DNA of 43,164 bases from a virus. The notes under the pieces are model-generated. The model saw only the letters and a list, made by a program, of their open reading frames with translations, was not told where the DNA came from and did not search any database. This document shows positions 99 to 43,164 of the stretch, piece after piece (position 1 is the stretch's first letter; each line of letters opens with the position of its first letter). The DNA lies in the IMG/VR virus record IMGVR_UViG_3300015245_000019, one strand, 5' to 3'. The position numbers and the translations under genes were made by a program.

Positions 99-2546
99 TT
101 GCCAGAACTCACACCTGAGCCCCTTGATGGCGGCCTTGTAACCGCACGAGACCCCGCTACGCTGACGCCGGGCGAGCTGACCCTCGCTAACAACGCCTAT
201 TACCTCCCCAACGACTCCGCAATCCACAAGGTCAAAGGCAGAACAAAGTATAACACTGTGGCTCTGGGTTCTGCCGGCAATGTAAAGGGGCTCAGATACT
301 TAGAGTTTGACGACGCCACGGCCATTGTGGCGGCGCACGAGGCAAGCAGCATCCGTCTCAGCACCTTTGCCGCCGAGACGGGAGATTTCTCCACGCTGAC
401 GCCGATCTCTTCCGTGGGATCAGGCCAGTCGATGGACTCCATCCAGTACGCTAACAAGCACTACCTGCTAATCGGCGCGGGACAGAACCAGGTCGTCAAG
501 GGAGACGGCACGTTCCGGAACCACGGAATGGTGCCGGTGCCGGAACTCACCACGCCGCCGGCGATCAGTGCCGGCGCCTGGTCCACGCAGCTCGGGACCG
601 GCTTCTTCCATTTCTTCACGACGGAAGTCTTCATCGATGCGTTAAACGGCGATGAGCTGGAGAGCGCTTTCACAGGCACGCCGCAAAGTGTGAATGTCAC
701 CGCGGTGGCGTCGCAGCAAGTCACGGTGACGAGATCCACACTGTCGAACCCAAACGCAACCCAGTGGCGCGTCTATATGGCTGGGCCAACGGTGACGGAG
801 ACGCCGATTCCTCTTCTGAGCGACTTCCACCAGGTGGCAGAGCAGGACATCTCCAACACGACGGCACTGATTGGAAACCAAGCCCTTGTGGCGGGACGTC
901 TCCCTACGGCAAACGGGGCTACTGGATGGACGAACACCAGTAACGTGTTCTCGAATACCGACAACGCAGGAATGACCACTTCGACGAACCTGGCTAGCGT
1001 GCTGCTCAACACATTCGGGTTCTCTGGCGTGAGCGGCACGATTACCGGTTTTGAAGTAGCCATTCGGCTCAAGATGACGGGCTTCACTCCGAAGTTCTTC
1101 CTCGGGTCGAACAGCCCGCTGCTCATCATGGACCTGACCTACAACGGGACGAACTTCTTTCCTGGGAACAACACCACTGCTCCTGTAATCCGACAGATAC
1201 AAGGCGTTACCAGCGGATATGTCACTGTGATTATTGGGGATCCCCACAACCTGTGGGGGCGGAGCAGTTGGGCGTTGGCCGACCTGAATGCGAACGCCTC
1301 CTTCGGCATCCGTTTCAAGTACGGGCAAGAGTACGTGGGGGCCTCTAACGCCACGCTGGATGTGGACTGGGTGAAGATTGCCGTCCACTCCACCGGTTCG
1401 ACGAGACCAGTCAACCTAGAAGGGAAGGCGTTCCGCGTCGTCACGGTCGCCGAGGCCGGCATTGTGACGGTCTACCCAGCCGACATGCCGCCGCCGACGG
1501 CCAGTACGGGGGATATCTTCGAGGGGCAGTTGCTATTGAACGATGTGCAGGATCCCTCCATGTTGAGGGCCTCTCTTCCCGACGAGGTGGACTCTTTCCC
1601 CGGCCCGTACTTCGTGAACTTTGAGACGAAAGAACGGGACGAGGTCACGTTGATTCGGCGGGTCGGAAACAAGACCGTCGTGGCGTTGTCCCACCAGCTC
1701 TACAGGCTGAACTACTTCCCGCGGGAGACCGATGCCGAGTTCGACCGAGGCCGATGCTTCGAGGCTATATCGGAGAGCCATGGGATCGTGGGTCCCATGG
1801 CGGGGACGTTGTTCTCTCCGGACGGCGGACCGCTCCTCCTGGGTTACGTCGCTCACGAGGGCCTTCATGCAACAGACGCCTTCCAGACGAAGGTTCTGAA
1901 CAAGGATCTTGACTGGAGAACCACGGTAACGGCGTCGTCGTTGAAGGCCTCCATTCTCGTTAACTTCCCTATTCTGGAGCAGCTATGGCTCTACTACACC
2001 GTCTCGGGGGTGAACAAGGCGCTGGTCTATCACTACAACACGCAGCACCGGAAGGAGGACGGGTCGTTCAAGGCGACGGGGCCGATCGATGTCGCGGCGT
2101 TCTCGGCCTGTCTTGCACGTCTGTCCGGGGCGGACGTTCTCCTTACTGGGCAGAGCGGCGGCTTTGTGTATGTGGAGGATCGCGGCTACGACCACAACGC
2201 GGGAGGGACGATTCCTTTCGCTGTGCAGACGAGGGAGATGTACCCAGGCGGGTTTGCCGACCAGATCACGATGAACTCGATGTACGTGAGACACCGGGCT
2301 GACAGTCCCGTGGGGACAGTCACCGTGACGCCGATCACGAGGACCGACTCGGCGGCCCAAGTGACGCGGGCAGCAAAGACCTTCGCAAATACTAACGGCG
2401 GCGCAGCGATGATTGCGTGGTCGCATATCTTCGGATCACTGCAAGTCCAGCTCTCTGAGCCGGGAACAAATGGCGGAGGAGCGGTTCGTCTCACGGCTCT
2501 GGCGATGGAGCTAACTGGTCACGGTCTCCCGGAGAGCCGCACATGA
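99..2546 (+). CDS. Tail tubular protein B / nozzle-like virion protein (T7 gp12-like by size and position)
   Basis: 815-aa ORF with a TTG start 10 nt after the stop of the gp11-like gene. Its stop overlaps the next start (ATGA at 2543-2546). Function is inferred from gp11-gp12 synteny and length only, not from motifs. Confidence 0.55.
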   Translation: MPELTPEPLDGGLVTARDPATLTPGELTLANNAYYLPNDSAIHKVKGRTKYNTVALGSAGNVKGLRYLEFDDATAIVAAHEASSIRLSTFAAETGDFSTLTPISSVGSGQSMDSIQYANKHYLLIGAGQNQVVKGDGTFRNHGMVPVPELTTPPAISAGAWSTQLGTGFFHFFTTEVFIDALNGDELESAFTGTPQSVNVTAVASQQVTVTRSTLSNPNATQWRVYMAGPTVTETPIPLLSDFHQVAEQDISNTTALIGNQALVAGRLPTANGATGWTNTSNVFSNTDNAGMTTSTNLASVLLNTFGFSGVSGTITGFEVAIRLKMTGFTPKFFLGSNSPLLIMDLTYNGTNFFPGNNTTAPVIRQIQGVTSGYVTVIIGDPHNLWGRSSWALADLNANASFGIRFKYGQEYVGASNATLDVDWVKIAVHSTGSTRPVNLEGKAFRVVTVAEAGIVTVYPADMPPPTASTGDIFEGQLLLNDVQDPSMLRASLPDEVDSFPGPYFVNFETKERDEVTLIRRVGNKTVVALSHQLYRLNYFPRETDAEFDRGRCFEAISESHGIVGPMAGTLFSPDGGPLLLGYVAHEGLHATDAFQTKVLNKDLDWRTTVTASSLKASILVNFPILEQLWLYYTVSGVNKALVYHYNTQHRKEDGSFKATGPIDVAAFSACLARLSGADVLLTGQSGGFVYVEDRGYDHNAGGTIPFAVQTREMYPGGFADQITMNSMYVRHRADSPVGTVTVTPITRTDSAAQVTRAAKTFANTNGGAAMIAWSHIFGSLQVQLSEPGTNGGGAVRLTALAMELTGHGLPESRT

Positions 2547-5536
2547 GCGGTATGAGGAGCTACCGGCCGATGAGGATCGGGGCCATTACCGATCCTCAGC
2601 TTCGCCGCGAGTTGCAGGGGACCGACGACTGGCTTCGGCAGCTCTCGACCAATCAGGCAAGGCTCGTCCAGATGCCGCCGGGAACGCCCACTGCGGTGAC
2701 GAATCCGTCTCCGACAGGAATCGATACGGGAGCCTTCCTCTATCTTCCAGGCCGCTCCCACGAGCAGATGTCGCTCGGCCCGGTGTCCTTCGACGCCTTC
2801 GGGCTTGCGTACAGCGACTCTGCACCGACGACAGAGAGGACTCTTTCTCTTCGGGCAACGACCAGCGACGGTTCTGCTCAGCCGGCGCGGGTGTTCCTCG
2901 GCATCCAGGGCTCCCGAGTCGGTACTACCGCTTCGGCCCAAAAGCGGTACTGGGCGTTTCCGTCGTTCACGGAGATCAACACGGGACCGTCCACGGGACT
3001 CCACTACTTCGTGGACCAGGACGACTACCAGTCGCTGTCGAAGAAGACGTTGAACAACGACTGCTACCTGAAGCTCGAAGACACCGTGGGCGGAAGCGGG
3101 ATCATCAACGCGGGGAGGACGAGTGTTCTTCAGTTCGCGTGGGGTAGCGGCTATCCCGCCGGGGGCGGCAGCGCCGTGACACCGACCACCCTCACGGGCG
3201 TGGTGCCGTCACTCCAGATCCCAGGGCTCGACTACAAAGATAGTGGGGTGGGGGTACGGGACCGCACCCACGTGTGGTGTATCTTGAAGAGCGACCATAC
3301 CGACACGACTCCCTTCGAGCCGGGAACACCAGTCTTCGGATCGTCTTCGGGGAAGGAACTCTACGCAATGTTCGGGACGGCGCAAGGCACGCTGGCTGCG
3401 CCGGCGACGAACTCCTTCCCGATCTGGCATGCGGTGGTGACACAGAGCTGCACGTTTACGCTGTCGAGTCCCACTGCCACGATGGCGAGCACTACAGGTA
3501 TTGTGAAGGGAATGCGGATGAGGGAGACGCTGAATGCGTACTCTCTTCCCGAGAACATGCACGTGCTGTCTGTGGATTCTCCCACGCAGATTACGATGGG
3601 TGCCAATTGGCCGGCTTCTAACCTCACACGCACGATCGATTTCTTCGGGATGACGTGGAGTGACACAGCGACCAGCGTGACGTTGTCGCACAGTGCGCTG
3701 ACCGGGCTCTCAGCTGACGATCACACGCAGTATCTTTTGCTGAATACCGCGGCACTGAATCGGGCCACTGGGCAGCGGATTGGGACGGCTACCCAAACTG
3801 GGAATAGCGATGACGTTGCTATTTCAGGACGGCTGAGCATTGGAACTGGCGCATATCAGCTAGGGCAGAAATTAGTTGTCTCTGACGTACTTTCCGCAAT
3901 AACAGGCGTGGTCAATCTTGCAAGACTCACTCCCAGTGTTACTGCTGTTGGTGGCTCTACTGCAACCTATCGTGCCTTACTTTGCCAAATTACAGGTGGT
4001 AGTTCTATAACAAGTAATTCTCCTAGTTTTGTAGGGGCATTTTTTACCGTTAGTCCTGCGATAACCTCCGGTAGCAGCGTGTCGGTGGGCGATTGTCTTG
4101 GTTTGGATATGAGTGCCACTATCCAAATTACTGCTACGGGATCAACGGCAAATTTGATCGCTGGGTTCCGTGGCGGGGCGCGTGGCGGCGCGAGCAACAT
4201 GGGGGACACTTTTGTAAATACCCAAATATCGGGTGCCCTCAGTGTTGTGTCCTCTGGGACTGGTAAGACGCAAGCTATGAATGGTCTCAATCTGACCATG
4301 GACACGGCTAACAAGTCCTACAGTCTTACGACGCGAACAGCCGGCATTAACTTGGATCTTTTCGGAAATACGGGCAACACATCGTGGGGCAAGACGAACT
4401 GGCCATGTGTCGTGACTGGCGGTAGTGCCAATTTGACATCTTTCACCAATGCTGGACAGATCCAAGTTGGCCAGTACGTATCCGGTACCAACATCCCGTC
4501 CGGCTCCTACGTAATCGCCACAGACAATGTCATGCTCATAGTTACACTGAACAATAATGCCACTGGAGCTGGAACGTCTGTCGATGTGTGGGGAACGACT
4601 GTCTACTGGTCTGGGATATACCGTAGTTTTGCGCTTCCGTTGGGAGGTGAGGTTACAAATGGCCGATTCGTTGATCTCCAGGCCGACATTCCGAGCCAAC
4701 ACTATGGCGCCTTTTACTTCCGGCCTCCGACGGCGTCCTCTTACCCTGCGCCTACGGCATGGGTTCACATTGGTGCTGGAGCGGCAGCGGCTGGATCTGC
4801 ACCACTGAAGCTAACGTCAGGTACTAGTCTCACGACAGCTGAAGCCGGCGCAATGGAGTTTACGACTGACGATTTCTTTCTGACGATCACTACGGGTGCG
4901 GCTCGTAAAGGCATCGTCCTCGATAACGGATCTCGCCTTACCTCTGGAAGAGTGCCGTTTGCCACGACCAATGGTCGGCTGATTGACGATTCGGACATGA
5001 CATTTAGCGTAGATACGTTGACTGTTACAAAGTTGGTTGTCGGAGCTGGGACTGCCGTTACCAATCTTCCAAAGACACTCTTCGATGACTTTGCTGATAT
5101 TGGCAACATCGGAACAGGAGAAGATGATCTTTTCTCTCATACGATTGCTGCAAGTCAGTTAGCGACAAACGGAGACAAACTGACTTCCAACATGGCTGGA
5201 ATCTTCGTCTCTTCTGCGACTGCAACACGGCGACTGAAAGCTTACTTTGGCGGCACATTGATCTATGACTCTTCTGCCCTTTCTCTCTCCACTTCGAGTG
5301 ACTGGGACATGAAGATGATTGTTCTTCGAGAGTCCAGTACGGTGGTCCGTTGTTCGGTCACAGTGAACACAACGACTGCCTCTAGCGCGCCCTATTGTCA
5401 GTACACGAGGATCACTGGGCTCACATTATCGAACACGAATGTCTTGAAGATCACTGGCGAGGCTGCCGGTGTTGGAGCGGCAACAGATGATATCGTAGCA
5501 AAACTTGGGACGATCGTCTTCGTTCCGGCAGCGTAG
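2543..5536 (+). CDS. Tail fibre / receptor-binding protein
   Basis: 997 aa. The segment SAPLKLTSGTSLTTAEAGAMEFTTDDFFLT matches the conserved phage tail-fibre motif (APLKF.SG.LLT.PE.GA.E) as I recall it. The middle is long and Gly/Ser/Thr-rich. GC content drops after about 3780. Confidence 0.75.
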   Translation: MSGMRSYRPMRIGAITDPQLRRELQGTDDWLRQLSTNQARLVQMPPGTPTAVTNPSPTGIDTGAFLYLPGRSHEQMSLGPVSFDAFGLAYSDSAPTTERTLSLRATTSDGSAQPARVFLGIQGSRVGTTASAQKRYWAFPSFTEINTGPSTGLHYFVDQDDYQSLSKKTLNNDCYLKLEDTVGGSGIINAGRTSVLQFAWGSGYPAGGGSAVTPTTLTGVVPSLQIPGLDYKDSGVGVRDRTHVWCILKSDHTDTTPFEPGTPVFGSSSGKELYAMFGTAQGTLAAPATNSFPIWHAVVTQSCTFTLSSPTATMASTTGIVKGMRMRETLNAYSLPENMHVLSVDSPTQITMGANWPASNLTRTIDFFGMTWSDTATSVTLSHSALTGLSADDHTQYLLLNTAALNRATGQRIGTATQTGNSDDVAISGRLSIGTGAYQLGQKLVVSDVLSAITGVVNLARLTPSVTAVGGSTATYRALLCQITGGSSITSNSPSFVGAFFTVSPAITSGSSVSVGDCLGLDMSATIQITATGSTANLIAGFRGGARGGASNMGDTFVNTQISGALSVVSSGTGKTQAMNGLNLTMDTANKSYSLTTRTAGINLDLFGNTGNTSWGKTNWPCVVTGGSANLTSFTNAGQIQVGQYVSGTNIPSGSYVIATDNVMLIVTLNNNATGAGTSVDVWGTTVYWSGIYRSFALPLGGEVTNGRFVDLQADIPSQHYGAFYFRPPTASSYPAPTAWVHIGAGAAAAGSAPLKLTSGTSLTTAEAGAMEFTTDDFFLTITTGAARKGIVLDNGSRLTSGRVPFATTNGRLIDDSDMTFSVDTLTVTKLVVGAGTAVTNLPKTLFDDFADIGNIGTGEDDLFSHTIAASQLATNGDKLTSNMAGIFVSSATATRRLKAYFGGTLIYDSSALSLSTSSDWDMKMIVLRESSTVVRCSVTVNTTTASSAPYCQYTRITGLTLSNTNVLKITGEAAGVGAATDDIVAKLGTIVFVPAA

Positions 5537-5546
5537 GAGACGATAG

Positions 5547-5864
5547 ATGGCCACTAGAACACAGGCAAAGGCGGCAATCGATAACGTGGCGATTGCCATT
5601 AAGGCGGACATCGATGCGATTGTTCCAGCTACCGCAAATATCTCGGACGGCAACATTGCCTTTACTCCGCAGCACTGGAACATTTATATCAATGCCGGTG
5701 GGAGTTCGACGACAGCGGATTCTTTCTTGGCGACAATCACTGCTAATCTAGCGACTGCAGGCCGCGCGACGACAGTCACGCGGAGTGGCCGGCGTTCCGA
5801 CGATTCAGACCACACCATCACGATTAAGACAACACTGGCGAACTATCTCATTGTAAACTTCTAG
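5547..5864 (+). CDS. Hypothetical protein (possible fibre accessory)
   Basis: 105-aa ORF with an RBS (taGGAGacgatagATG), directly after the fibre gene. No recognisable motif. Confidence 0.5.
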   Translation: MATRTQAKAAIDNVAIAIKADIDAIVPATANISDGNIAFTPQHWNIYINAGGSSTTADSFLATITANLATAGRATTVTRSGRRSDDSDHTITIKTTLANYLIVNF

Positions 5865-22234: not shown

Positions 22235-22256
22235 GTCGTTCCTTTCTGCCGAAGGC

Positions 22257-22328
22257 AGGCGCCGGTGGGACTCGAACCCACGTCAACGGGGTTGCAATCC
22301 GTCGCGTCAACCCTTCCGCCACGGCGCC
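22257..22328 (-). tRNA. tRNA-Cys (anticodon GCA)
   Basis: Hand-folded from the - strand sequence GGCGCCGTGGCGGAAGGGTTGACGCGACGGATTGCAACCCCGTTGACGTGGGTTCGAGTCCCACCGGCGCC+T. Acceptor stem GGCGCCG/CGGCGCC. T arm GTGGG-TTCGAGT-CCCAC. Anticodon loop TTGCAAC. Three-bp D stem with a G13/A22 mismatch, one A-C mismatch in the anticodon stem, 4-nt variable loop. Discriminator U, no encoded CCA. Confidence 0.85.
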
Positions 22329-22654
22329 TATACACGTATGCGGGTCTCAGCTCCCGGTCCTTCCAGGAAAGGATATTGTCCTTGGTCGAAGTTGCGTGCC
22401 ATGGTTTTCACGGCAATTGGCCGCCGGAAAAAGAAGAATTCGTCAGTCGCAACTTCTCCTTTCGGAACGACGGAGGTGATGTATTGGGCCAATGGGCAAG
22501 AAAGAGACTTACCTCTTTCTCCTTTGATGCCGAGCTTATGAAGAGATGCGGCGCATTCGTCGGGAGAAGAGCCCAGAGCTGTCAAGGCTGCTTCTACGCG
22601 TTCTTGGAGATCCAGTCGTTCCTTGGTTCTGGACTGATGTGGTCGTCCCTTCAC
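22328..22654 (-). CDS. Small protein, paralog B of the CP[VL]AQY pair
   Basis: 108 aa from a GTG that overlaps the upstream stop (GTGA). Its TAG stop shares one base with the first base of tRNA-Cys. The 190-aa version in the ORF track overlaps the upstream gene and was trimmed. Confidence 0.5.
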   Translation of the reverse strand: MKGRPHQSRTKERLDLQERVEAALTALGSSPDECAASLHKLGIKGERGKSLSCPLAQYITSVVPKGEVATDEFFFFRRPIAVKTMARNFDQGQYPFLEGPGAETRIRV

Positions 22655-26849: not shown

Positions 26850-27083
26850 TTAGTAGCTGTCCGTATCTTTAATGTTGATAGCCACAAGACGCGTCCGAGG
26901 CGTCGGGTCGCCGGTCAACATCCGTCCCAAGGCAACAAGCGCCGCCGCCTTGCTCCCGGCAAGGATCAGTTTCGGCGCGACCGTCACAACGGCCATGGTG
27001 CCGCCTTGCTCTGCCACTACCGTAGGCTCCTCGATTGCTGCCACCAGGTAGACGAAAAGGCTTTTATCCATGCGTTGAATCAC
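26850..27083 (-). CDS. Hypothetical protein
   Basis: 77-aa ORF 22 nt downstream of the amidotransferase gene. Start is GTG 27083 or ATG 27071. GC-rich, unlike the preceding island. Confidence 0.45.
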   Translation of the reverse strand: MIQRMDKSLFVYLVAAIEEPTVVAEQGGTMAVVTVAPKLILAGSKAAALVALGRMLTGDPTPRTRLVAINIKDTDSY

Positions 27084-27105: not shown

Positions 27106-28080
27106 CTACTCGTAAAACTGCGCTTCTTCGTTGCTGCTGTCTTTTTCTGCCGCAGGCGGCGGCGGCGGCGGTAGTGCGCCGAGTGGCTGGCCTTTGGATT
27201 CAGGCAACGGCTCCGGGCGGAAGATTTGCTTGCCTTTCTTCCGTACCCAACGGCCACAGACGCCGTTTACGTAACCGATGTTGTTGTCAGCCCATGACTT
27301 GGGTAGTTTGGCGTTTTCCTTTCGCCATGTATCCCAATTGAACCGGCCATAGTCTGTGCTCTTGTAGTTGGGCTGGTAACACAGTCCGATTTCCCGGACT
27401 CGGCCTTGCTGCGGATCCAAACGGCACAGTACTTTGTCGGGTACGGTGTCGGATTTGATGCGATAGTCCATAAGCCAGACGTAATGGGCGGCTCGGTCGA
27501 TGATGCCTTCTGTCGAGGCAAATAGCATGACGCGCGTGCCGTTGGTCAAGTCAACGCGGTAGCTTTCGATCGGGTTTCCGTCTCGAATGAGATAGACCTT
27601 GTTTTCGTGGTAGACGGCGACGGCGGCACTGCCAAAGATGGAGCGTAAGAAGCGCGGCACCTTAAAGATGCCGTTCTTTTCGGCGTAAGCCGAAAATAGT
27701 TCGCTGTCTACGCCGGACGGCCAGAGAAGGCTGTGCGTCTCTGCGACTTTTTCGGGATTTCCGATAACGCCGTTGTGGATTGTGGCGATGCCGGAAGCGG
27801 AGACAAAAGGTTGCGCTTGTTCGTTGCCTTTCTCCCCGCAAGTTGGGGCGCGGGTATGGAGCAAGGCGTAACTTGCGCCGCCTTCGAGAAGCGCGGCGAA
27901 TTCGGGAAGAACGCCGAATTCGTCAGGAGATATGGCGCGTTTGAGTAGTTTGCCGTTCGTGTGAATCCCGGCACTCTGCTTTCCGCGCTCTTGGCCGAAG
28001 AACAAGAGCGCGCGGCATAAGCGCAGCGCCGTCTCGTAGGAAAGCGGTTTACTAGACGCGAAGCCGCTGATGCTGCACAC
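27106..28080 (-). CDS. Class-II (Ntn) glutamine amidotransferase-like protein with C-terminal extension
   Basis: GTG-TGC start gives an N-terminal Cys nucleophile (M)CSISGF. HTRAPTCGEKGNEQAQPF and IHNGVIGN match the purF-type GATase pattern. About 110 extra C-terminal residues end in a poly-Pro tract. An AGGAAGGA RBS is present. Confidence 0.7.
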   Translation of the reverse strand: MCSISGFASSKPLSYETALRLCRALLFFGQERGKQSAGIHTNGKLLKRAISPDEFGVLPEFAALLEGGASYALLHTRAPTCGEKGNEQAQPFVSASGIATIHNGVIGNPEKVAETHSLLWPSGVDSELFSAYAEKNGIFKVPRFLRSIFGSAAVAVYHENKVYLIRDGNPIESYRVDLTNGTRVMLFASTEGIIDRAAHYVWLMDYRIKSDTVPDKVLCRLDPQQGRVREIGLCYQPNYKSTDYGRFNWDTWRKENAKLPKSWADNNIGYVNGVCGRWVRKKGKQIFRPEPLPESKGQPLGALPPPPPPAAEKDSSNEEAQFYE

Positions 28081-29341
28081 GTTGCGGGGTTCCTTCCTTT
28101 GATAATTGGATGTACTCTGTGATGCGGACGTAACGCTCGAAGCGGCGGATGCGCCGGATGACGTACTTTCGGCCTTTGAGAGGCAAGTCGAGAAAGCGAT
28201 AGAAGGAGATGAGAAGTTGCCGGCCGGTTAGACGCTCGTCAGTGATTAAGACTGGAGCCGCTATCGCCTTTGTGACGAAACGGAGCAAGAGAAGGATCCA
28301 TTTCCGGATTAGTGTGGAGTTAACTGTGCCGTGATGGAGTCGGAATTCGTAACTTTTGTGCTTTGAATAGGCCGATGTATTAAGGGCTTGGTAGCGTGTG
28401 TGTTCCGGACGGAATCTCCCTTCCAGTTTGACGGAAGTGCAATAAGTGTTCTTCCGCCGTTGCTGGCGCACCATGGCGAAAAAGATCGGCTCGTAAAGGA
28501 ACCACCAGTACTCGATTTGTTTGCGTTGTGATGCCGTCACGGTTCGCATATCAATATGCACGTGAAAGCCACAAGAACGGTTGGAGTAAGACTGCGATGC
28601 CTTCAAAGCATCGCAAACGGAAGTCACTTGCGAGAGCAAGGTGTCGCCTCTCGCGATGCGGGATGCAAACTCGCGAGGATATCCGCCTTTGGCGGCGGTG
28701 GCCTTTATCGAGCCGTCGGATTTCAAATGGCCAAAGGGGCCGACAAAAGGCAAGTCGGAGAGACAATGTAGAAATTCTAATTCAAAACCTACGAATAGTT
28801 TACTCTTGTTCTGCATGAAAGTCGTGTCGGGAATCGGGAATCTTTGGGAGCATACAGCGCAAAACTTACTGCTATCTATGGTTACGAGGTTATTGGCCGT
28901 GAAATGGTGGTCGCAGTTTATGCATCTATCGCATCCTTCTACCGCGTAGCAACGGCGGCAGCAATGTCGCTGGCCGATACCGGCGTAATTGACAAGGCGG
29001 GATTCATTTGTCAATTCATGCCCTTTACATTGGCGGCACGTGATCCATTGTTCGTCTGAGCAGCAGTTAGAGCAAAGGTGACGAGTCTCTCTAGTGGCGA
29101 GATGCCAATCCATATCCGGGCCTGTCGGGAGAACCCAAACTGCTAACAGTTGGGAATTGCTTTTGTATAGCAATGTGTTACAAGTTAAGCAATTAGAGAA
29201 ATAGAGTTTTGCACATTTCCGGCAGAATTTAGCTCCCGCAACGGACTGATGGGTAAATGGTGCCTTTACCCATTGCACGCCGCATTGGGAGCATTGCCAC
29301 GGGATCGGCTTGTTTGGGGTCAGCTGTGAGGGATCAGGCAT
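28052..29341 (-). CDS. Amidoligase_2-type (GS/GCS2-like) COOH-NH2 ligase with four N-terminal zinc ribbons
   Basis: ATG at 29341 overlaps the upstream stop (ATGCCTGA). The N-terminal ~190 aa carry eight CxxC pairs (CSQC, CRKC, CLTC, CSNC, CRQC, CRRC, CDRC, CAVC). The C-terminal half has VGFELEF, KSDGSI, SCGFHVHID, YQALN and YEFRLHHGT, the PF12224 pattern as I recall it. AT-rich third codon positions. Confidence 0.7.
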   Translation of the reverse strand: MPDPSQLTPNKPIPWQCSQCGVQWVKAPFTHQSVAGAKFCRKCAKLYFSNCLTCNTLLYKSNSQLLAVWVLPTGPDMDWHLATRETRHLCSNCCSDEQWITCRQCKGHELTNESRLVNYAGIGQRHCCRRCYAVEGCDRCINCDHHFTANNLVTIDSSKFCAVCSQRFPIPDTTFMQNKSKLFVGFELEFLHCLSDLPFVGPFGHLKSDGSIKATAAKGGYPREFASRIARGDTLLSQVTSVCDALKASQSYSNRSCGFHVHIDMRTVTASQRKQIEYWWFLYEPIFFAMVRQQRRKNTYCTSVKLEGRFRPEHTRYQALNTSAYSKHKSYEFRLHHGTVNSTLIRKWILLLLRFVTKAIAAPVLITDERLTGRQLLISFYRFLDLPLKGRKYVIRRIRRFERYVRITEYIQLSKEGTPQRVQHQRLRV

Positions 29342-29615
29342 TGTCTGGCTGTTTTCGGGATATGCGGGATACACGTTCGTCGTCTCCCGAGTCGGGGCCG
29401 AAGGGATGATCTAGCCACAGTTTGAGCGGATACGGTTCTAGCCAACTAGGCCGAATTACTTTTCCTTCACCATCGCTTTGATCGTCGCCACACTCCCAAT
29501 ACGGACCTAGTAAAGACTTCGATAGTTTCCACAGCCCGGAACCGTGCTTTGGTATTGCAGCATGAAACCGAACGCGGGGCGCTAGGACCGACGATCGGCT
29601 GGCGGTCAAGGTCAA
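29334..29615 (-). CDS. Hypothetical protein upstream of the amidoligase
   Basis: 93-aa reading from a TTG that overlaps the upstream stop (TTGA). Its 3' part lies in the low-GC island. The start is uncertain. Confidence 0.4.
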   Translation of the reverse strand: MTLTASRSSVLAPRVRFHAAIPKHGSGLWKLSKSLLGPYWECGDDQSDGEGKVIRPSWLEPYPLKLWLDHPFGPDSGDDERVSRISRKQPDNA

Positions 29616-29779
29616 GATGCCGACCCCCGGTCGATCGTTGGTCCTGAGCCACCGGAGACGCCTTCCGCGCGATTGTGGGCGGACGGCGAAGCCGGTTTCG
29701 GCGGCTGCGGGCAGGACGGCCAGAATTGCAAAGCGGCGATGATTCCGGCCGCCCATGCCCAAACGGCGAGGATAATCAC
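29612..29779 (-). CDS. Small single-pass membrane protein
   Basis: 55 aa from a GTG overlapping the upstream stop (GTGA). TM segment VIILAVWAWAAGIIAALQFW. All three frames are open here, so coding status is uncertain. Confidence 0.35.
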   Translation of the reverse strand: MIILAVWAWAAGIIAALQFWPSCPQPPKPASPSAHNRAEGVSGGSGPTIDRGSAS

Positions 29780-29868
29780 GAACGAAGCGCGTCTCGGAGT
29801 GCCGTCAAGGCCGCGAGCATCTCGGGGGAGATAGGACCGGGCGGGACGATGATCCAGGTAGGCGTCAT
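29776..29868 (-). CDS. Possible 30-aa micro-ORF
   Basis: MTPTWIIVPPGPISPEMLAALTALRDALRS. Its ATG overlaps the upstream stop (ATGA) and its stop overlaps the next start (GTGA). It is proposed only because of this coupling geometry. Confidence 0.25.
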   Translation of the reverse strand: MTPTWIIVPPGPISPEMLAALTALRDALRS

Positions 29869-30044
29869 CGTGCAGCCGCCCGGTAGACGTTGGACAGCGC
29901 GGCGGAGTAGCTGTGGGAAGCGGGAAGCAGGCGCAGCGGGACGGTACGGAACGGTCGCGGTAGCGGCCGTCCCGTGGCGGGGTCAATGTTGGCCTTGAGA
30001 AGCAGGCCGGTAAGGCGTTCCAGCGTCCAGCGGGTCGGTGTCAT
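29865..30044 (-). CDS. Hypothetical small protein
   Basis: 59 aa from the ATG at 30044 (MTPTRWTLERLTGLLLKANIDPATG...). The longer version in the ORF track overlaps the upstream gene. Confidence 0.4.
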   Translation of the reverse strand: MTPTRWTLERLTGLLLKANIDPATGRPLPRPFRTVPLRLLPASHSYSAALSNVYRAAAR

Positions 30045-40611: not shown

Positions 40612-40944
40612 ATGCCGACTTACAGCCTGAACATGGCCGATGAGAAGTTCATCAACCAAGTCCTTGAGCCGGAGGAATTGACCAGGCGGGTTCCCCGCCT
40701 GGCGACGTTCTTCGAGGGGATCAAAGAACAACGCGGAGCATTGGCCGATCTCGGAACGAAAGGGCCGAAGACAGGTTCTACTGGCTGGTGGAAGAACGGG
40801 ACGGCGCAGTATCTCGGTACTGTGCCGATCTCGGTCAAGATGGCGATTCAAGAGATCGACCCCGAGTTCTGGGAAGATCAGCGGAAAGTGATGCGCTTCT
40901 TCGCCACTCACCCCGAATACGTTGTCACGTCGGTGTCGAAATGA
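40612..40944 (+). CDS. Hypothetical protein
   Basis: 110-aa ORF. Its stop overlaps the glycosyltransferase ATG (ATGA). Confidence 0.55.
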   Translation: MPTYSLNMADEKFINQVLEPEELTRRVPRLATFFEGIKEQRGALADLGTKGPKTGSTGWWKNGTAQYLGTVPISVKMAIQEIDPEFWEDQRKVMRFFATHPEYVVTSVSK

Positions 40945-42254
40945 CCGAGCACAAGGACGGAGTGCCGTCGGAAGAGGCGTTCAAAGACCCGTCTCGGAGG
41001 CGCAGTCGCCCGAAGTTTGGGGTCTACGCCAAATCGATGGGGGAGAACAACGGCTGCCTTTACTACCGTGTGGAAGTCCCGACTCGGGGCCTCTTCAAGC
41101 TCGGCCTTGCAGAGGCATTTGTAGACGCGGGCCGTGGAGCCGTAGACGAGTCGATTGGGGCTCTCTTTTCTGCGGAGATCATCCTGAACTTCGCTCTTTC
41201 TGGCGGCTCTGTCGAGGCGGTGCTCAATGCTCTCTCGAACATGAGGTCGGGAAAGACGGATGACGGCAACGAGGTGATTTTCCCTCCGTCGTTCGTCTTC
41301 GACCTTGACGACCGGATCGACTACACACACCCGTTCAACCCGGCCTTTGTGCATCTGGGCGTTCGGGCTTACGACGGCACGCCGTTGAAGAATGGCGACC
41401 GGCTCGTGACGACCTTTCCGGACGGTACGGACGTCATCCTCTGGGAGGACGGTGTCACAAGGCACGAGGTGCAGCACGAGGTCGTCACGTTCGACGTAGA
41501 GCGGAACTGGCGGAGAGTTAACCAAGTCTTCGACACGGCCCGAAGGGCCGATGGCGTCACTGTGCCGTCGCCGGCACTGGCCGAGTTCTACCGAGAACTA
41601 GGCGCGAAGGACGTGTACATCTTCCCGAACTCGGTGATCCCGGAGGACTACCCTGCGCCGCAGCTTGTTCCGCGCCCCGAAGGGGCGGTCCGCATCATGT
41701 GGCAAGGTGGTGCGTCCCACATGGTGGATTGGTTCCCGCTCCGGGACGCGGTCAGAACCATTGCGTTGAAGTATCCGAAGGTCAAGTTCGTCATCTGGGG
41801 GACTCACTACCCGTGGATCCACGACAACATCCCGAAGGAGCAACTGGAACTGAAGAGTTGGGTCCCGTATGACGCCTACAAGCCGATGCGGGGCATCGTG
41901 GACGTGGACATCAACCTCTGTCCCCTCGTGGACAATGTCTTCAACAAGGGGAAAAGTGCCATCAAGTGGTACGAGTCCGTCCTTCCCTTCGAGCCGGAAG
42001 CAACGCTCGCGGCAAAAGCGGCTCCCTACAGTGACGAGATTGAAGACGGAAAGACCGGGCTCCTCTACAGCAGTCCCGAAGAGTTCGTCGAAAAACTGAG
42101 CGCCCTCATCGAGAACGTACAGCTGCGGAAGACACTCGCTCGCGAAGCGCGCTCCTGGGTGATCGCCAATCGGCACTACGAGAAGACGGTTCCCGGCCTT
42201 TTCGAGTTCTACCAACATTTACGCGCGCGTAAGCGCGTCGCCCTGGCGGCCTAA
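40941..42254 (+). CDS. GT-B fold glycosyltransferase (group-1 / CgeB-like C-terminal domain)
   Basis: 437 aa from the ATG at 40941. VRIMWQGGASH, KVKFVIWG, and LCPLVDNVFNKGKSAIKWYES...YSDEIEDGKTGLLYSSPEEFVEKLSALIENVQLRKTLAREA follow the GT1 C-terminal pattern. Confidence 0.6.
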   Translation: MTEHKDGVPSEEAFKDPSRRRSRPKFGVYAKSMGENNGCLYYRVEVPTRGLFKLGLAEAFVDAGRGAVDESIGALFSAEIILNFALSGGSVEAVLNALSNMRSGKTDDGNEVIFPPSFVFDLDDRIDYTHPFNPAFVHLGVRAYDGTPLKNGDRLVTTFPDGTDVILWEDGVTRHEVQHEVVTFDVERNWRRVNQVFDTARRADGVTVPSPALAEFYRELGAKDVYIFPNSVIPEDYPAPQLVPRPEGAVRIMWQGGASHMVDWFPLRDAVRTIALKYPKVKFVIWGTHYPWIHDNIPKEQLELKSWVPYDAYKPMRGIVDVDINLCPLVDNVFNKGKSAIKWYESVLPFEPEATLAAKAAPYSDEIEDGKTGLLYSSPEEFVEKLSALIENVQLRKTLAREARSWVIANRHYEKTVPGLFEFYQHLRARKRVALAA

Positions 42255-43164
42255 ATGGCGATGACGAGGGGCAATGCGAAGACGTACATCGCAAGAGCCC
42301 TTTCTGGATCTTCCGATACGGACCGGCTGGCTCAGGCGCAGGACGCCCTTTTCGCGGCCCTGCAAGAGTGGAATATCCGGAACGACTGGTCTTTTCTTTT
42401 GATGGACACCAGTAACGGCTTTTCCGTTGCCGCTTGTACGCAGACGCTGGGTAATACACTTACGACGGCAACGGCTGATGGTTTCGCCGCCGTCAATGTT
42501 GGACAGACTGCCGTCGGAGCCACGATCGGGACGGTCACCGTGACGGCTATCGTCTCGACGACGGTTGTAACTGTCTCGGGAGGCGCCAATAACGGCCCGG
42601 AGACGTTGGTTTTCTCCGCTGACATTCCGGTAAGGGCGACTTTCGATACCTACAACCTGCCGTCACCGGTAAAGCGACCGTACTCGGCGCGGCTTCTTAT
42701 CAACAACAAACGTCTTGAGTTCCGCGACCAGAGACGGATCGATCGGATGTTCTCGAACCTGAGCGTAGGAGGAGAGCCCGGCCTCTACAATGTGTTCAAC
42801 ACGGCATCCTTTTCGACAAGTACACAGAACGGAAAGGTGCGTCTTTTCCCTATTCCGAGTTCTGCGGAGACGCTCCGGGTACGGTATCACCGGCCGATTG
42901 CTGAAACCAATTCTGATGCTCTGAATCTAGACGTCCCGGATCGGTACGTCTACGCGCTTCTAGAGCTGGGCCGATACAACTACTTGAAGGATCTGGACTC
43001 GGAGAATCCACGGACCGGGGAAGCAAAGGAAAGGGCTGAACATTTGCTTCGCAGGGCAATCTGGGATGACACTCAGGGCTCTGCCGACAATGATATTCTT
43101 CTGATTCCGCACGTCGATCACGGGCAGTTCCGGCAAATTGACTCCTCGGACGCTATTCTCGAAG
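42255..43164 (+). CDS. Tail tubular protein A / adaptor (T7 gp11-like); continues across the circular join to base 88
   Basis: The ATG follows directly after the previous stop and the frame stays open to the window edge. After removing the duplicate 77 nt the total is about 306 aa. AQDALFAALQEWNIRNDWSFLL and VPDRYVYALLELGRYNYLKD parallel T7 gp11 [20 protein letters not shown] and [20 protein letters not shown] as I recall that sequence. The gp12-sized gene follows. Confidence 0.6.
   Translation, partial: MAMTRGNAKTYIARALSGSSDTDRLAQAQDALFAALQEWNIRNDWSFLLMDTSNGFSVAACTQTLGNTLTTATADGFAAVNVGQTAVGATIGTVTVTAIVSTTVVTVSGGANNGPETLVFSADIPVRATFDTYNLPSPVKRPYSARLLINNKRLEFRDQRRIDRMFSNLSVGGEPGLYNVFNTASFSTSTQNGKVRLFPIPSSAETLRVRYHRPIAETNSDALNLDVPDRYVYALLELGRYNYLKDLDSENPRTGEAKERAEHLLRRAIWDDTQGSADNDILLIPHVDHGQFRQIDSSDAILE
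43088..43164. repeat. Terminal direct repeat, copy 2 of 2
   Basis: Exact 77-nt copy of bases 1-77 at the right edge of the window. Confidence 0.97.

Follow-up and report, generated by a model that had tools for sequence, protein, structure and literature searches.

A zinc-ribbon amidoligase and a class-II glutamine amidotransferase encoded as an adjacent pair by a phage: candidate subunits of one amide-forming enzyme

Results

The phage genome recorded in IMG/VR as IMGVR_UViG_3300015245_000019 (43,164 nt, the whole of which is called the window below) carries on its minus strand two neighboring genes, one for a zinc-ribbon-array amidoligase and the other for a class-II glutamine amidotransferase (GATase). 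Tentatively, we favor the view that the two products are subunits of a single amide-forming, glutamine-dependent, and ATP-driven enzyme of a lytic phage, tethered through the zinc array. This ammonia-relay model is preferred because the two genes are strictly coupled 1:1, the GATase lacks an acceptor domain, and the ligase has the fold and the ammonia chemistry of glutamine synthetase, an enzyme that couples an acyl-phosphate to ammonia. The coordinates of all features are collected in Table 1.

The Amidoligase and Its Zinc-Ribbon Array

The ligase open reading frame (ORF; 28052-29374, minus strand) matched PF12224, Amidoligase_2, with E = 5e-17 and 63 bits (gathering score 22) and PHROG 2443 'amidoligase' at 3e-19, in agreement with a preliminary description of this DNA that had noticed an Amidoligase_2-like half in the ORF at 28052. 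The alignment of eight sequences, 28-57% identical, revealed invariant E198, E200, D220, S222, E235, H271, H273, R306, N309, R327, E343, and R345. The GxExE, HxH, and ExR motifs (E198, E200, E235, H271, H273, E343, and R345), and with them the conserved Glu, His, and Arg residues, are kept. As judged from these residues, the acidic/His/Arg pattern would be the one expected for a glutamine synthetase-type bimetal, ATP, and acyl-phosphate site.

The structure model of the ligase was usable only in its catalytic half (predicted local distance difference test score, pLDDT, of 70-90). Foldseek matched this half to glutamine synthetase, YbdK (GCS2), and the gamma-glutamylmethylamide synthetase GmaS with a probability of ~1.0 and E ~1e-4, the template modeling (TM) score being only 0.25-0.35. 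The search against BFVD returned dozens of phage amidoligases, with E values down to 5e-13. Neither an NCBIfam match nor a sequence match to any solved glutamine synthetase was found for the ligase. One of the BFVD matches is the UniProt entry 'LIM domain containing protein [uncultured Caudovirales phage]'; public databases probably contain a zinc-array amidoligase that has so far gone unrecognized.

In the N-terminal ~184 aa of the ligase, with the ATG at 29341 taken as the start, there are 19 Cys and nine CxxC motifs (CSQC, CRKC, CLTC, CSNC, CRQC, CRRC, CDRC/CINC, and CAVC). The preliminary description had seen eight CxxC in about 190 aa; the array itself stands, being conserved in homologues, and the motifs number nine. 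In the alignments of eight and of 13 homologues, hardly any column of the N-terminal half other than those of the paired Cys is invariant or near-invariant, and the pairs cannot be due to chance since they are kept in 13 homologues of only 18-45% identity.

The public JGI gene call (P0001, 28052-28816, 254 aa) begins only at an internal Met, so that the entire zinc-ribbon half is lost. This call is wrong and the array is part of the ligase, because a full-length homologue of 441 aa (P0002) covers 97% of the query at 56% identity, the invariant columns are near-exclusively Cys, the internal Met is not conserved, and the linker leading from the array into GxExE is continuous (P-I-x-x-x-T-F-x-x-N-P-x-K-R-x-V-G-F-E-L-E-F). 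When CxxC motifs were counted in relatives with the GxExE motif as the anchor, 13 of the 15 scored carried an array of four to 12 motifs, and the remaining two lacked the anchor. No CxxC array was present in the amidoligases of the two cultured phages checked, Pseudomonas phage Bjorn and a Porphyromonas phage. From these comparisons, the zinc-ribbon array is a real feature of this phage clade, and a targeting role can reasonably be inferred.

Searches with the array gave weak matches. None of the Pfam families scored above threshold, the best being DUF4379 (17.7 versus 24.5 bits), with weak DZR and LIM matches; the same scan of the array in 13 homologues gave only scattered sub-threshold matches to DZR and LIM. 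The profile search of the PDB returned BSD2/DnaJ-type and LIM entries at a non-significant E ~0.04. With phmmer, the array alone was compared to 1.84 billion representatives: P0002 was the sole strong match, the remainder were weak, and seven of the eight checked were DUF4379 repeat proteins. The array half of the AlphaFold model was unusable (pLDDT ~35).

The Glutamine Amidotransferase

The second ORF (27106-28080, minus strand) encodes 324 aa and starts with GTG-TGC, i.e., M-C. Its assignment to a purF-type N-terminal nucleophile (Ntn) family in the preliminary description was borne out, as it scored above threshold with GATase_6 (E = 2.5e-10; 40.9 versus 27 bits) and GATase_7 (27.3 versus 25 bits), and its fold matched PurF and GlmS. 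The motifs MCSISGF, HTRAPTCG, and HNGVIGN noticed earlier are present and lie in invariant columns: among 18 homologues, C2, R32, G33, H75, R77, T80, N103, G104, and D125 do not vary, nor does the M1-C2 pair with the N-terminal Cys. R77, N103-G104, and D125 align with GlmS R73, N98-G99, and D123 (HTRWAT, HNG, and DTE). On the basis of the established GlmS and PurF structures, we take the Cys to be the nucleophile, Asn-Gly to form the oxyanion hole, and Arg and Asp to be the ligands of the glutamine alpha-carboxylate and alpha-amino groups. By these residues, the protein is a standalone class-II amidotransferase with all glutaminase residues intact.

The GATase model had an overall pLDDT of 83, the core being mostly at or above 89 with a dip to 79 at residues 81-90. 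Foldseek returned PurF, GlmS/GFAT, and EgtC at E ~1e-12 to 1e-9 (PurF/GlmS at E ~3e-12 and TMq 0.56; EgtC at rank 50), and the profile search gave PurF and GlmS at 4e-10. On the equivalog models, the scores reached only 38 versus a 350-bit cut-off for purF and 27 versus 418 bits for glmS. An orthologue of PurF, GlmS, or AsnB was rejected on these scores and on the absence of a fused phosphoribosyltransferase (PRTase), isomerase, or synthetase domain.

The C-terminal tail could not be aligned among homologues and had a pLDDT of 41-77, with one small beta-meander at aa 268-289. Hence, of the ~110-aa extension described earlier, a tail of ~95 aa does exist, but it contains no conserved domain and is mostly modeled with low confidence. 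A K/R-rich motif ending in DRN(RN) was seen in the GATase tails of P0017, P0020, P0023, P0025, P0027, and L018 (1492-2479).

Pairing and Distribution of the Two Genes

The sister phage L001 (a 46-kb contig, seen on 11 contigs) is 70-80% identical in DNA over most of the genome, and the pair lies at the same place in it, between the same helicase and the same terminase/portal genes. In all 16 distinct related metagenomic phage loci, the order is amidoligase and then GATase, the genes being adjacent or overlapping. The amidoligase directly precedes the GATase homologue in the four Logan/JGI loci looked up (4/4) and in every IMG/VR locus with upstream sequence. All-against-all clustering of the ORFs in the 16 loci revealed no third conserved gene; only the two enzymes occur everywhere, whereas an AAA_25 helicase was found in eight loci and a 77-aa ORF in five. 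The idea of a conserved third partner or tag protein was dismissed on this result.

The best identity to any cultured phage was below 36% for the ligase and below 29% for the GATase. Patterns derived from the GATase found no relative in 185,579 species genomes, and no PADLOC match was obtained in the defense/anti-defense libraries. The amidoligase pattern retrieved 80 loci from cellular genomes and metagenome-assembled genomes (MAGs); 79 contained an amidoligase ORF, directly followed in 24 of the 79 by a class-II GATase-like ORF. Five contigs of Candidatus Omnitrophota MAGs (L029 994-10862, L030, L034, L035, and L072) carry a zinc-array amidoligase and a GATase within a conserved block, in the order orf, TraG/type IV coupling protein (T4CP), two orfs, RadC, amidoligase, and GATase, with a sigma70_r4 gene further downstream. 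The zinc-array amidoligase plus GATase architecture is thus also carried by conjugative-type elements.

Two other arrangements were met in the cellular set. In L045, L053, L060, L091, L103, and about ten other Bacteroidales/Firmicutes loci, an amidoligase with no zinc array is immediately followed by a mini class-II GATase of ~180 aa. Five of these mini GATases were checked against Pfam and all matched GATase_4 (PF13230), L053 below the gathering score; we take GATase_4 to be the YafJ/EgtC family. In a prophage-like locus of a Nitrospirae MAG (L054 5263-8672), an amidoligase of 605 aa has a weak C-terminal SWIM zinc-finger match and no N-terminal array; a divergent GATase-like ORF and a GNAT acetyltransferase follow it, and a PD-(D/E)XK nuclease gene lies upstream.

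Base Composition and Origin of the Pair

The preliminary description had placed the pair in a low-GC island with AT-rich third codon positions and had considered it horizontally acquired. The first point holds for one gene only: against 58.3% GC in the window, the amidoligase gene has 50.8% (z = -3.0; the lowest 1.3-kb stretch, within the lowest 0.5%), whereas the GATase gene, at 56.7% (z = -0.6), is typical of the genome. The third codon positions are GC-rich (amidoligase, 57%; GATase, 67%), which contradicts the second point.

The notion of a recently acquired foreign island of two low-GC genes could draw on the outlying composition of the amidoligase and on the sharp rise of GC to 62-67% just upstream of it. 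It is largely refuted, and we hold it to be very improbable, because the dip is confined to the amidoligase, other early genes of the window are equally low at 51-52% GC, and the sister phage has the pair, the adjoining helicase, and the terminase/portal genes in syntenic positions, its amidoligase showing the same dip of 5.3 points. Moreover, in 15 relatives both genes follow the composition of the genome in which they reside (32% to 64% GC), and the gene order is the same throughout the 16 loci. Since the relatives' genes follow their own genomes and the dip recurs in the sister phage, the pair is an old resident of the phage lineage and no recent island.

The Genome and Its Leftward Operon

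An exact direct repeat of 77 bp at its two ends (1-77 = 43088-43164) shows the window to be a complete phage genome of ~43.09 kb, assembled as a circle. Family matches identified the large terminase and an SU10-type portal and major capsid protein; SU10 and phiEco32 are related phages. The pair occupies the promoter-proximal end of a leftward replication operon, adjoining the divergent junction with the structural genes. The operon also encodes an AAA_25 helicase, a helix-turn-helix protein, a PD-(D/E)XK nuclease, a methyltransferase, an AAA_24 protein, and a polymerase-exonuclease-like product.

The promoter and terminator scan of 26-32.7 kb detected no sigma-70-like sites, and terminator-like sites were at the background level. 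The scans made of the phage genome revealed no lysogeny genes. Among the 48 window ORFs scanned against Pfam, there were neither other pathway genes for the pair nor additional COOH-NH2_lig (PF14395), ATP-grasp, or gamma-glutamyl cyclotransferase (GGCT) partners. A pathway of DNA or RNA base hypermodification was rejected, as thymidylate synthase-like, kinase, DpdA/Que, or similar genes were not found in the complete genome and the scan for them turned up only Methyltransf_24 and replication genes.

The amidoligase is unusually rich in Cys (23 of 440 aa, encoded by 18 TGC and five TGT codons). The sole tRNA of the genome, a tRNA-Cys with the anticodon GCA (22254-22329, minus strand), lies in the same leftward operon as the pair; a link between the two is speculative. 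Among other regions of the window, a second low-GC stretch (3600-5700, 50-53%) falls inside ORF 2543-5536 (plus strand), which encodes 997 aa with no Pfam match, shows an atypical codon-position GC pattern, and may be a mosaic tail-fiber or host-range module. A protein of 488 aa with a glycosyltransferase-like domain (Glyco_trans_1_2, E = 1.5e-6) is encoded at 40788-42254 (plus strand) among the structural genes.

Gene Overlaps, Small ORFs, and the Conserved Upstream Block

Through their 29-nt overlap, the two enzyme genes are translationally coupled. Further upstream, the chain of start/stop overlaps reported in the preliminary description is present exactly as given: ATGA, GTGA, TTGA, and ATGCCTGA link the ORFs starting at 30044, 29868, 29779, and 29615 to the amidoligase ATG at 29341. 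Most of this chain is probably coding, because the predicted products of ORFs d, c, and a share sequence with ORFs of relatives. ORF d aligns over 83 aa with L001 9102-9347 of the sister phage at 41% identity (E = 3e-17), and the C-terminal 30 aa of ORF c are 67% identical to L001 8800-9105, which likewise has a hydrophobic N-terminus. No NCBIfam match was obtained for the small ORFs.

The 140-nt block that spans the junction of ORFs c and d differs from the sister phage by 23 mismatches, spread evenly over the codon positions with no third-position bias. The apex of its hairpin carries the ORF c stop and the ORF d start (TTGA), and the hairpin is kept in the sister phage with one compensatory change of C:G to G:C. 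The folding z-score was -3.7 in the window and -0.3 in L001. The block matched no Rfam family, two scans of viral contigs were empty, and one metagenome scan gave chance matches only; a weak match in L005 rests on a single 12-nt core. The block and its hairpin may act as a regulatory or translational-coupling element, the case for RNA structure being weak with two sequences only.

Homologues of the 77-aa ORF lie directly 3' of the GATase gene in five of the 16 loci, and in L020 the homologue is fused to a CxxC-rich N-terminus. The ORF matched no known family.

Table 1. Features of the amidoligase/GATase region of the window.
Feature	Coordinates	Strand	Remarks
Zinc-ribbon-array amidoligase	28052..29374	-	440 aa from GTG 29374; alternative ATG at 29341
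Predicted N-terminal array of about four Cys4 zinc ribbons	28850..29293	-	aa 28-175, nine CxxC
Amidoligase_2 catalytic domain, glutamine synthetase/GCS2-like fold	28130..28807	-	aa ~190-415
Class-II (Ntn) glutamine amidotransferase core	27391..28080	-	aa 1-230 of the 324-aa ORF 27106-28080; GATase_6/7 matches
Variable, mostly disordered C-terminal tail of the GATase	27106..27390	-	aa 231-324; basic patch RKKGK, then Pro-rich and acidic end
29-nt overlap of the amidoligase gene end and the GATase gene start	28052..28080	-	AAGGAAGGA 10 nt upstream of GTG
Small ORF a	29865..30044	-	59 aa, ATG start; N-terminal motif TLERLTGLLLKA in common with the called gene L005 2360-2587
Small ORF b	29776..29868	-	30 aa, ATG start in the ATGA overlap; coding status uncertain; homologue not found
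Small ORF c	29612..29779	-	55 aa, GTG start; N-terminal hydrophobic helix, conserved C-terminus
Small ORF d	29334..29615	-	93 aa, TTG start; stop overlaps the amidoligase ATG (ATGCCTGA)
Conserved block of 140 nt with hairpin 29585-29644	29565..29704	-	83.6% DNA identity to L001; flanks unalignable as DNA
77-aa ORF directly downstream of the GATase	26850..27083	-	Motif F-YLVAAIEEPTVVAEQGG; accessory gene, not a universal partner

Discussion

A Possible Ammonia-Relay Enzyme

In the model that we tentatively prefer, the amidotransferase would hydrolyze free glutamine and pass the ammonia to the ligase, which would activate a carboxylate with ATP as an acyl-phosphate and convert it into a carboxamide. 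Such an amidation would resemble in function those of MurT/GatD, asparagine synthetase B, and GatCAB. The GATase has no synthase domain and its tail is variable and disordered; therefore, it should need a partner to use the ammonia. The overlapping or abutting genes are as expected for a 1:1 complex. The approximately four zinc ribbons would tether the ligase to a macromolecule, either a nucleic acid or a protein, or to a substrate bound to one. The position of the pair at the front of the leftward replication operon and the presence of a related pair beside T4CP and RadC suggest that the module would act at the stage at which the element becomes established in a cell it has newly entered.

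Several points weigh against this model. The complex, its tunnel, and the activity of the pair are predictions only, and the timing of expression is deduced solely from gene order. No family of nucleic-acid- or protein-binding domains matched the array significantly, and its model had a pLDDT of only ~35. To our knowledge, the characterized free-standing class-II GATase-domain proteins (EgtC and the YafJ family) are gamma-glutamyl-amide hydrolases and not ammonia donors. EgtC is among the Foldseek matches of the GATase, and many cellular amidoligases precede mini GATase_4 proteins of the YafJ/EgtC family. Finally, clostridial prophages pair an amidoligase of the same PHROG with a gamma-glutamyl cyclotransferase, which points to gamma-glutamyl chemistry.

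The latter observations raise a close rival of the amidation model, possible though in our judgment rather unlikely, in which the pair makes and breaks gamma-glutamyl bonds: the ligase would join the gamma-carboxylate of glutamate (or another acid) to a target amine, such as a polyamine, a Lys side chain, or a metabolite, and an EgtC-like Ntn enzyme would remove or trim it later. There are precedents in EgtA/EgtC, PuuA/PuuD, and GmaS with its class-II-like MgsA subunit, and YbdK (GCS2) and gamma-glutamylmethylamide synthetase are among the structural matches of the ligase, as EgtC is for the GATase. The mini GATases that follow amidoligases in the Bacteroidales loci belong to PF13230, the cyclotransferase of the clostridial prophages lies beside the same kind of ligase, and a gamma-glutamyl-X substrate would be consistent with the Arg and Asp ligands of the glutamyl alpha-groups; the hydrolase activity of the free-standing class-II domains characterized so far, as far as is known, fits as well. 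However, making and breaking a bond within a module of two genes needs an intervening step, for which a gene is absent from the complete genome and none is conserved in relatives, the strict adjacency and overlap suit a complex better than sequential enzymes, and the window GATase matches GATase_6/7 and not GATase_4. In another scenario, which we regard as unlikely, the zinc array would direct the ligase to DNA, RNA, or a nucleic-acid-bound protein, and the pair would be a mobile-element 'entry' enzyme, common to lytic phages and conjugative-type elements, that covalently amidates or gamma-glutamylates a macromolecule of the host or of the element and thereby disarms a host response.

The same chemistry as in the ammonia-relay model could be directed at the cell envelope, the pair amidating a carboxylate of a peptidoglycan or surface-polymer precursor for superinfection exclusion, as MurT/GatD does on D-iso-Glu. 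Papers citing Iyer et al. 2009 credit that study with a suggestion of this kind for phiEco32, and the major capsid protein and portal of the window match families of SU10, a relative of phiEco32. We consider this improbable, as two to six conserved zinc ribbons would not be explained by a small precursor, whether soluble or lipid-linked, neither a signal peptide nor a membrane segment is visible in the sequences of the two proteins, a phage with no lysogeny genes in the scans made would gain little from excluding later phages, and no experimental test was found in the searchable literature. A remote alternative is pupylation-like tagging, in which the Ntn enzyme would deamidate the terminal Gln of a small tag, as Dop does, and the ligase would join the tag to Lys of host or phage proteins, as does PafA. 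It is established that PafA and Dop are glutamine synthetase-like carboxylate-amine ligases, small ORFs do flank the pair, and zinc arrays of the LIM or DnaJ/BSD2 type mediate protein-protein contacts, the matches to them being weak and non-significant here. Nevertheless, the 16 loci have no small ORF in common that accompanies the pair, and a terminal Gln/Glu or Gly-Gly-Gln is missing from all of the flanking ORFs. In addition, the GATase retains both residues for free alpha-groups, Arg and Asp, which fits free glutamine or a gamma-glutamyl compound and not an in-chain residue. Ordinary auxiliary metabolic genes, i.e., a PurF, GlmS, or glutamine synthetase supplied by the phage to enhance the host's metabolism of nucleotides, hexosamines, or nitrogen, are scarcely credible. 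Source annotations of some homologues do read 'PRPP (phosphoribosyl pyrophosphate) amidotransferase' or 'asparagine synthetase B', and one paper (PMC10945688) treats such phage genes as auxiliary genes of nitrogen metabolism. Against this stand the missing PRTase, isomerase, and synthetase domains, the purF and glmS scores far below the cut-offs, the lack of an NCBIfam match or of a sequence match to solved glutamine synthetases for the ligase, and the search of species genomes, in which the GATase patterns found no relative.

The zinc array offers an experimental handle and a practical route to the long-missing substrate, and once one member is solved, a function could be assigned to a gene family annotated in many phages. 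That the architecture occurs on conjugative-type elements as well suggests a role in establishing mobile elements generally, not a metabolic trick peculiar to phages. Should a macromolecule be the target, the pair would represent a new kind of enzymatic chemistry of host take-over or counter-defense.

Comparison with Known Systems

Pairs of a phage Amidoligase_2 and a class-II GATase were reportedly predicted by Iyer, Abhiman, Burroughs, and Aravind (Mol Biosyst, 2009). The window fits the module attributed to them, as the preliminary description had proposed, both families being found adjacent on one strand of a phage. The same description had stated that no substrate is known, and no substrate or experimental function of such a pair is reported in the searchable literature. 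Pairs of this type occur in LUZ24/PaP3/tf/UFV-P2-like Pseudomonas phages, in HMO-2011-type and OM43 phages, in phiEco32, and in mycobacteriophage Marvin, and in the LUZ24-like phages they are accompanied by COOH-NH2_lig (PF14395) and ATP-grasp genes.

The pair as such is an already known and widely annotated phage module. The pairs of cultured phages resemble that of the window in the two domain families, their adjacency on the same strand, and their location in the early/replication region. In contrast to the window ligase with its approximately four ribbons, the cultured-phage ligases checked have no N-terminal zinc array, and the window GATase is short, with 324 aa versus 486-586 aa in UFV-P2 and Bjorn. 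The partners of the LUZ24 type (COOH-NH2_lig PF14395, ATP-grasp, and an HNH insert) and GGCT are absent from the window.

With glutamine synthetase, YbdK, and GmaS, the ligase shares the fold class and the invariant E-x-E, H-x-H, and E-x-R, but the TM score is only 0.25-0.35, there is no sequence match, and no oligomerization domain is evident in the window protein. The GATase resembles the PurF and GlmS/GFAT glutaminase domains in its Ntn fold and in having Cys1, the Asn-Gly of the oxyanion hole, and the glutamine-binding Arg and Asp, and differs from them in lacking a fused acceptor domain and in having a variable tail of its own of 95 aa. EgtA/EgtC, as well as PuuA/PuuD and GmaS/MgsA, likewise combine a glutamine synthetase/GCS2-type ligase with a free-standing GATase-like amidohydrolase, which is a functional analogy only; EgtA/EgtC belong to ergothioneine biosynthesis, a different pathway context, whereas the window contains no other pathway genes. 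The lipid II amidotransferase MurT/GatD is a two-subunit enzyme that performs a glutamine-dependent, ATP-driven carboxylate amidation via an acyl-phosphate. The analogy is one of mechanism only, its folds (a Mur ligase and a class-I GATase) being unrelated to those of the window pair; MurT carries a Cys4 zinc ribbon.

The Omnitrophota pairs have the same architecture, with six to eight N-terminal CxxC (a 24-bit LIM match in L029), Amidoligase_2, and a GATase_6 protein encoded directly downstream. Their proteins are only ~23-29% identical to those of the window and lie not in a phage but in the T4CP-RadC-...-sigma70_r4 block. Compared with these systems, what is new here is a clade in which a zinc-ribbon array that varies in length is fused to the ligase, together with a short GATase whose tail is variable and the reduction of the system to exactly two genes.

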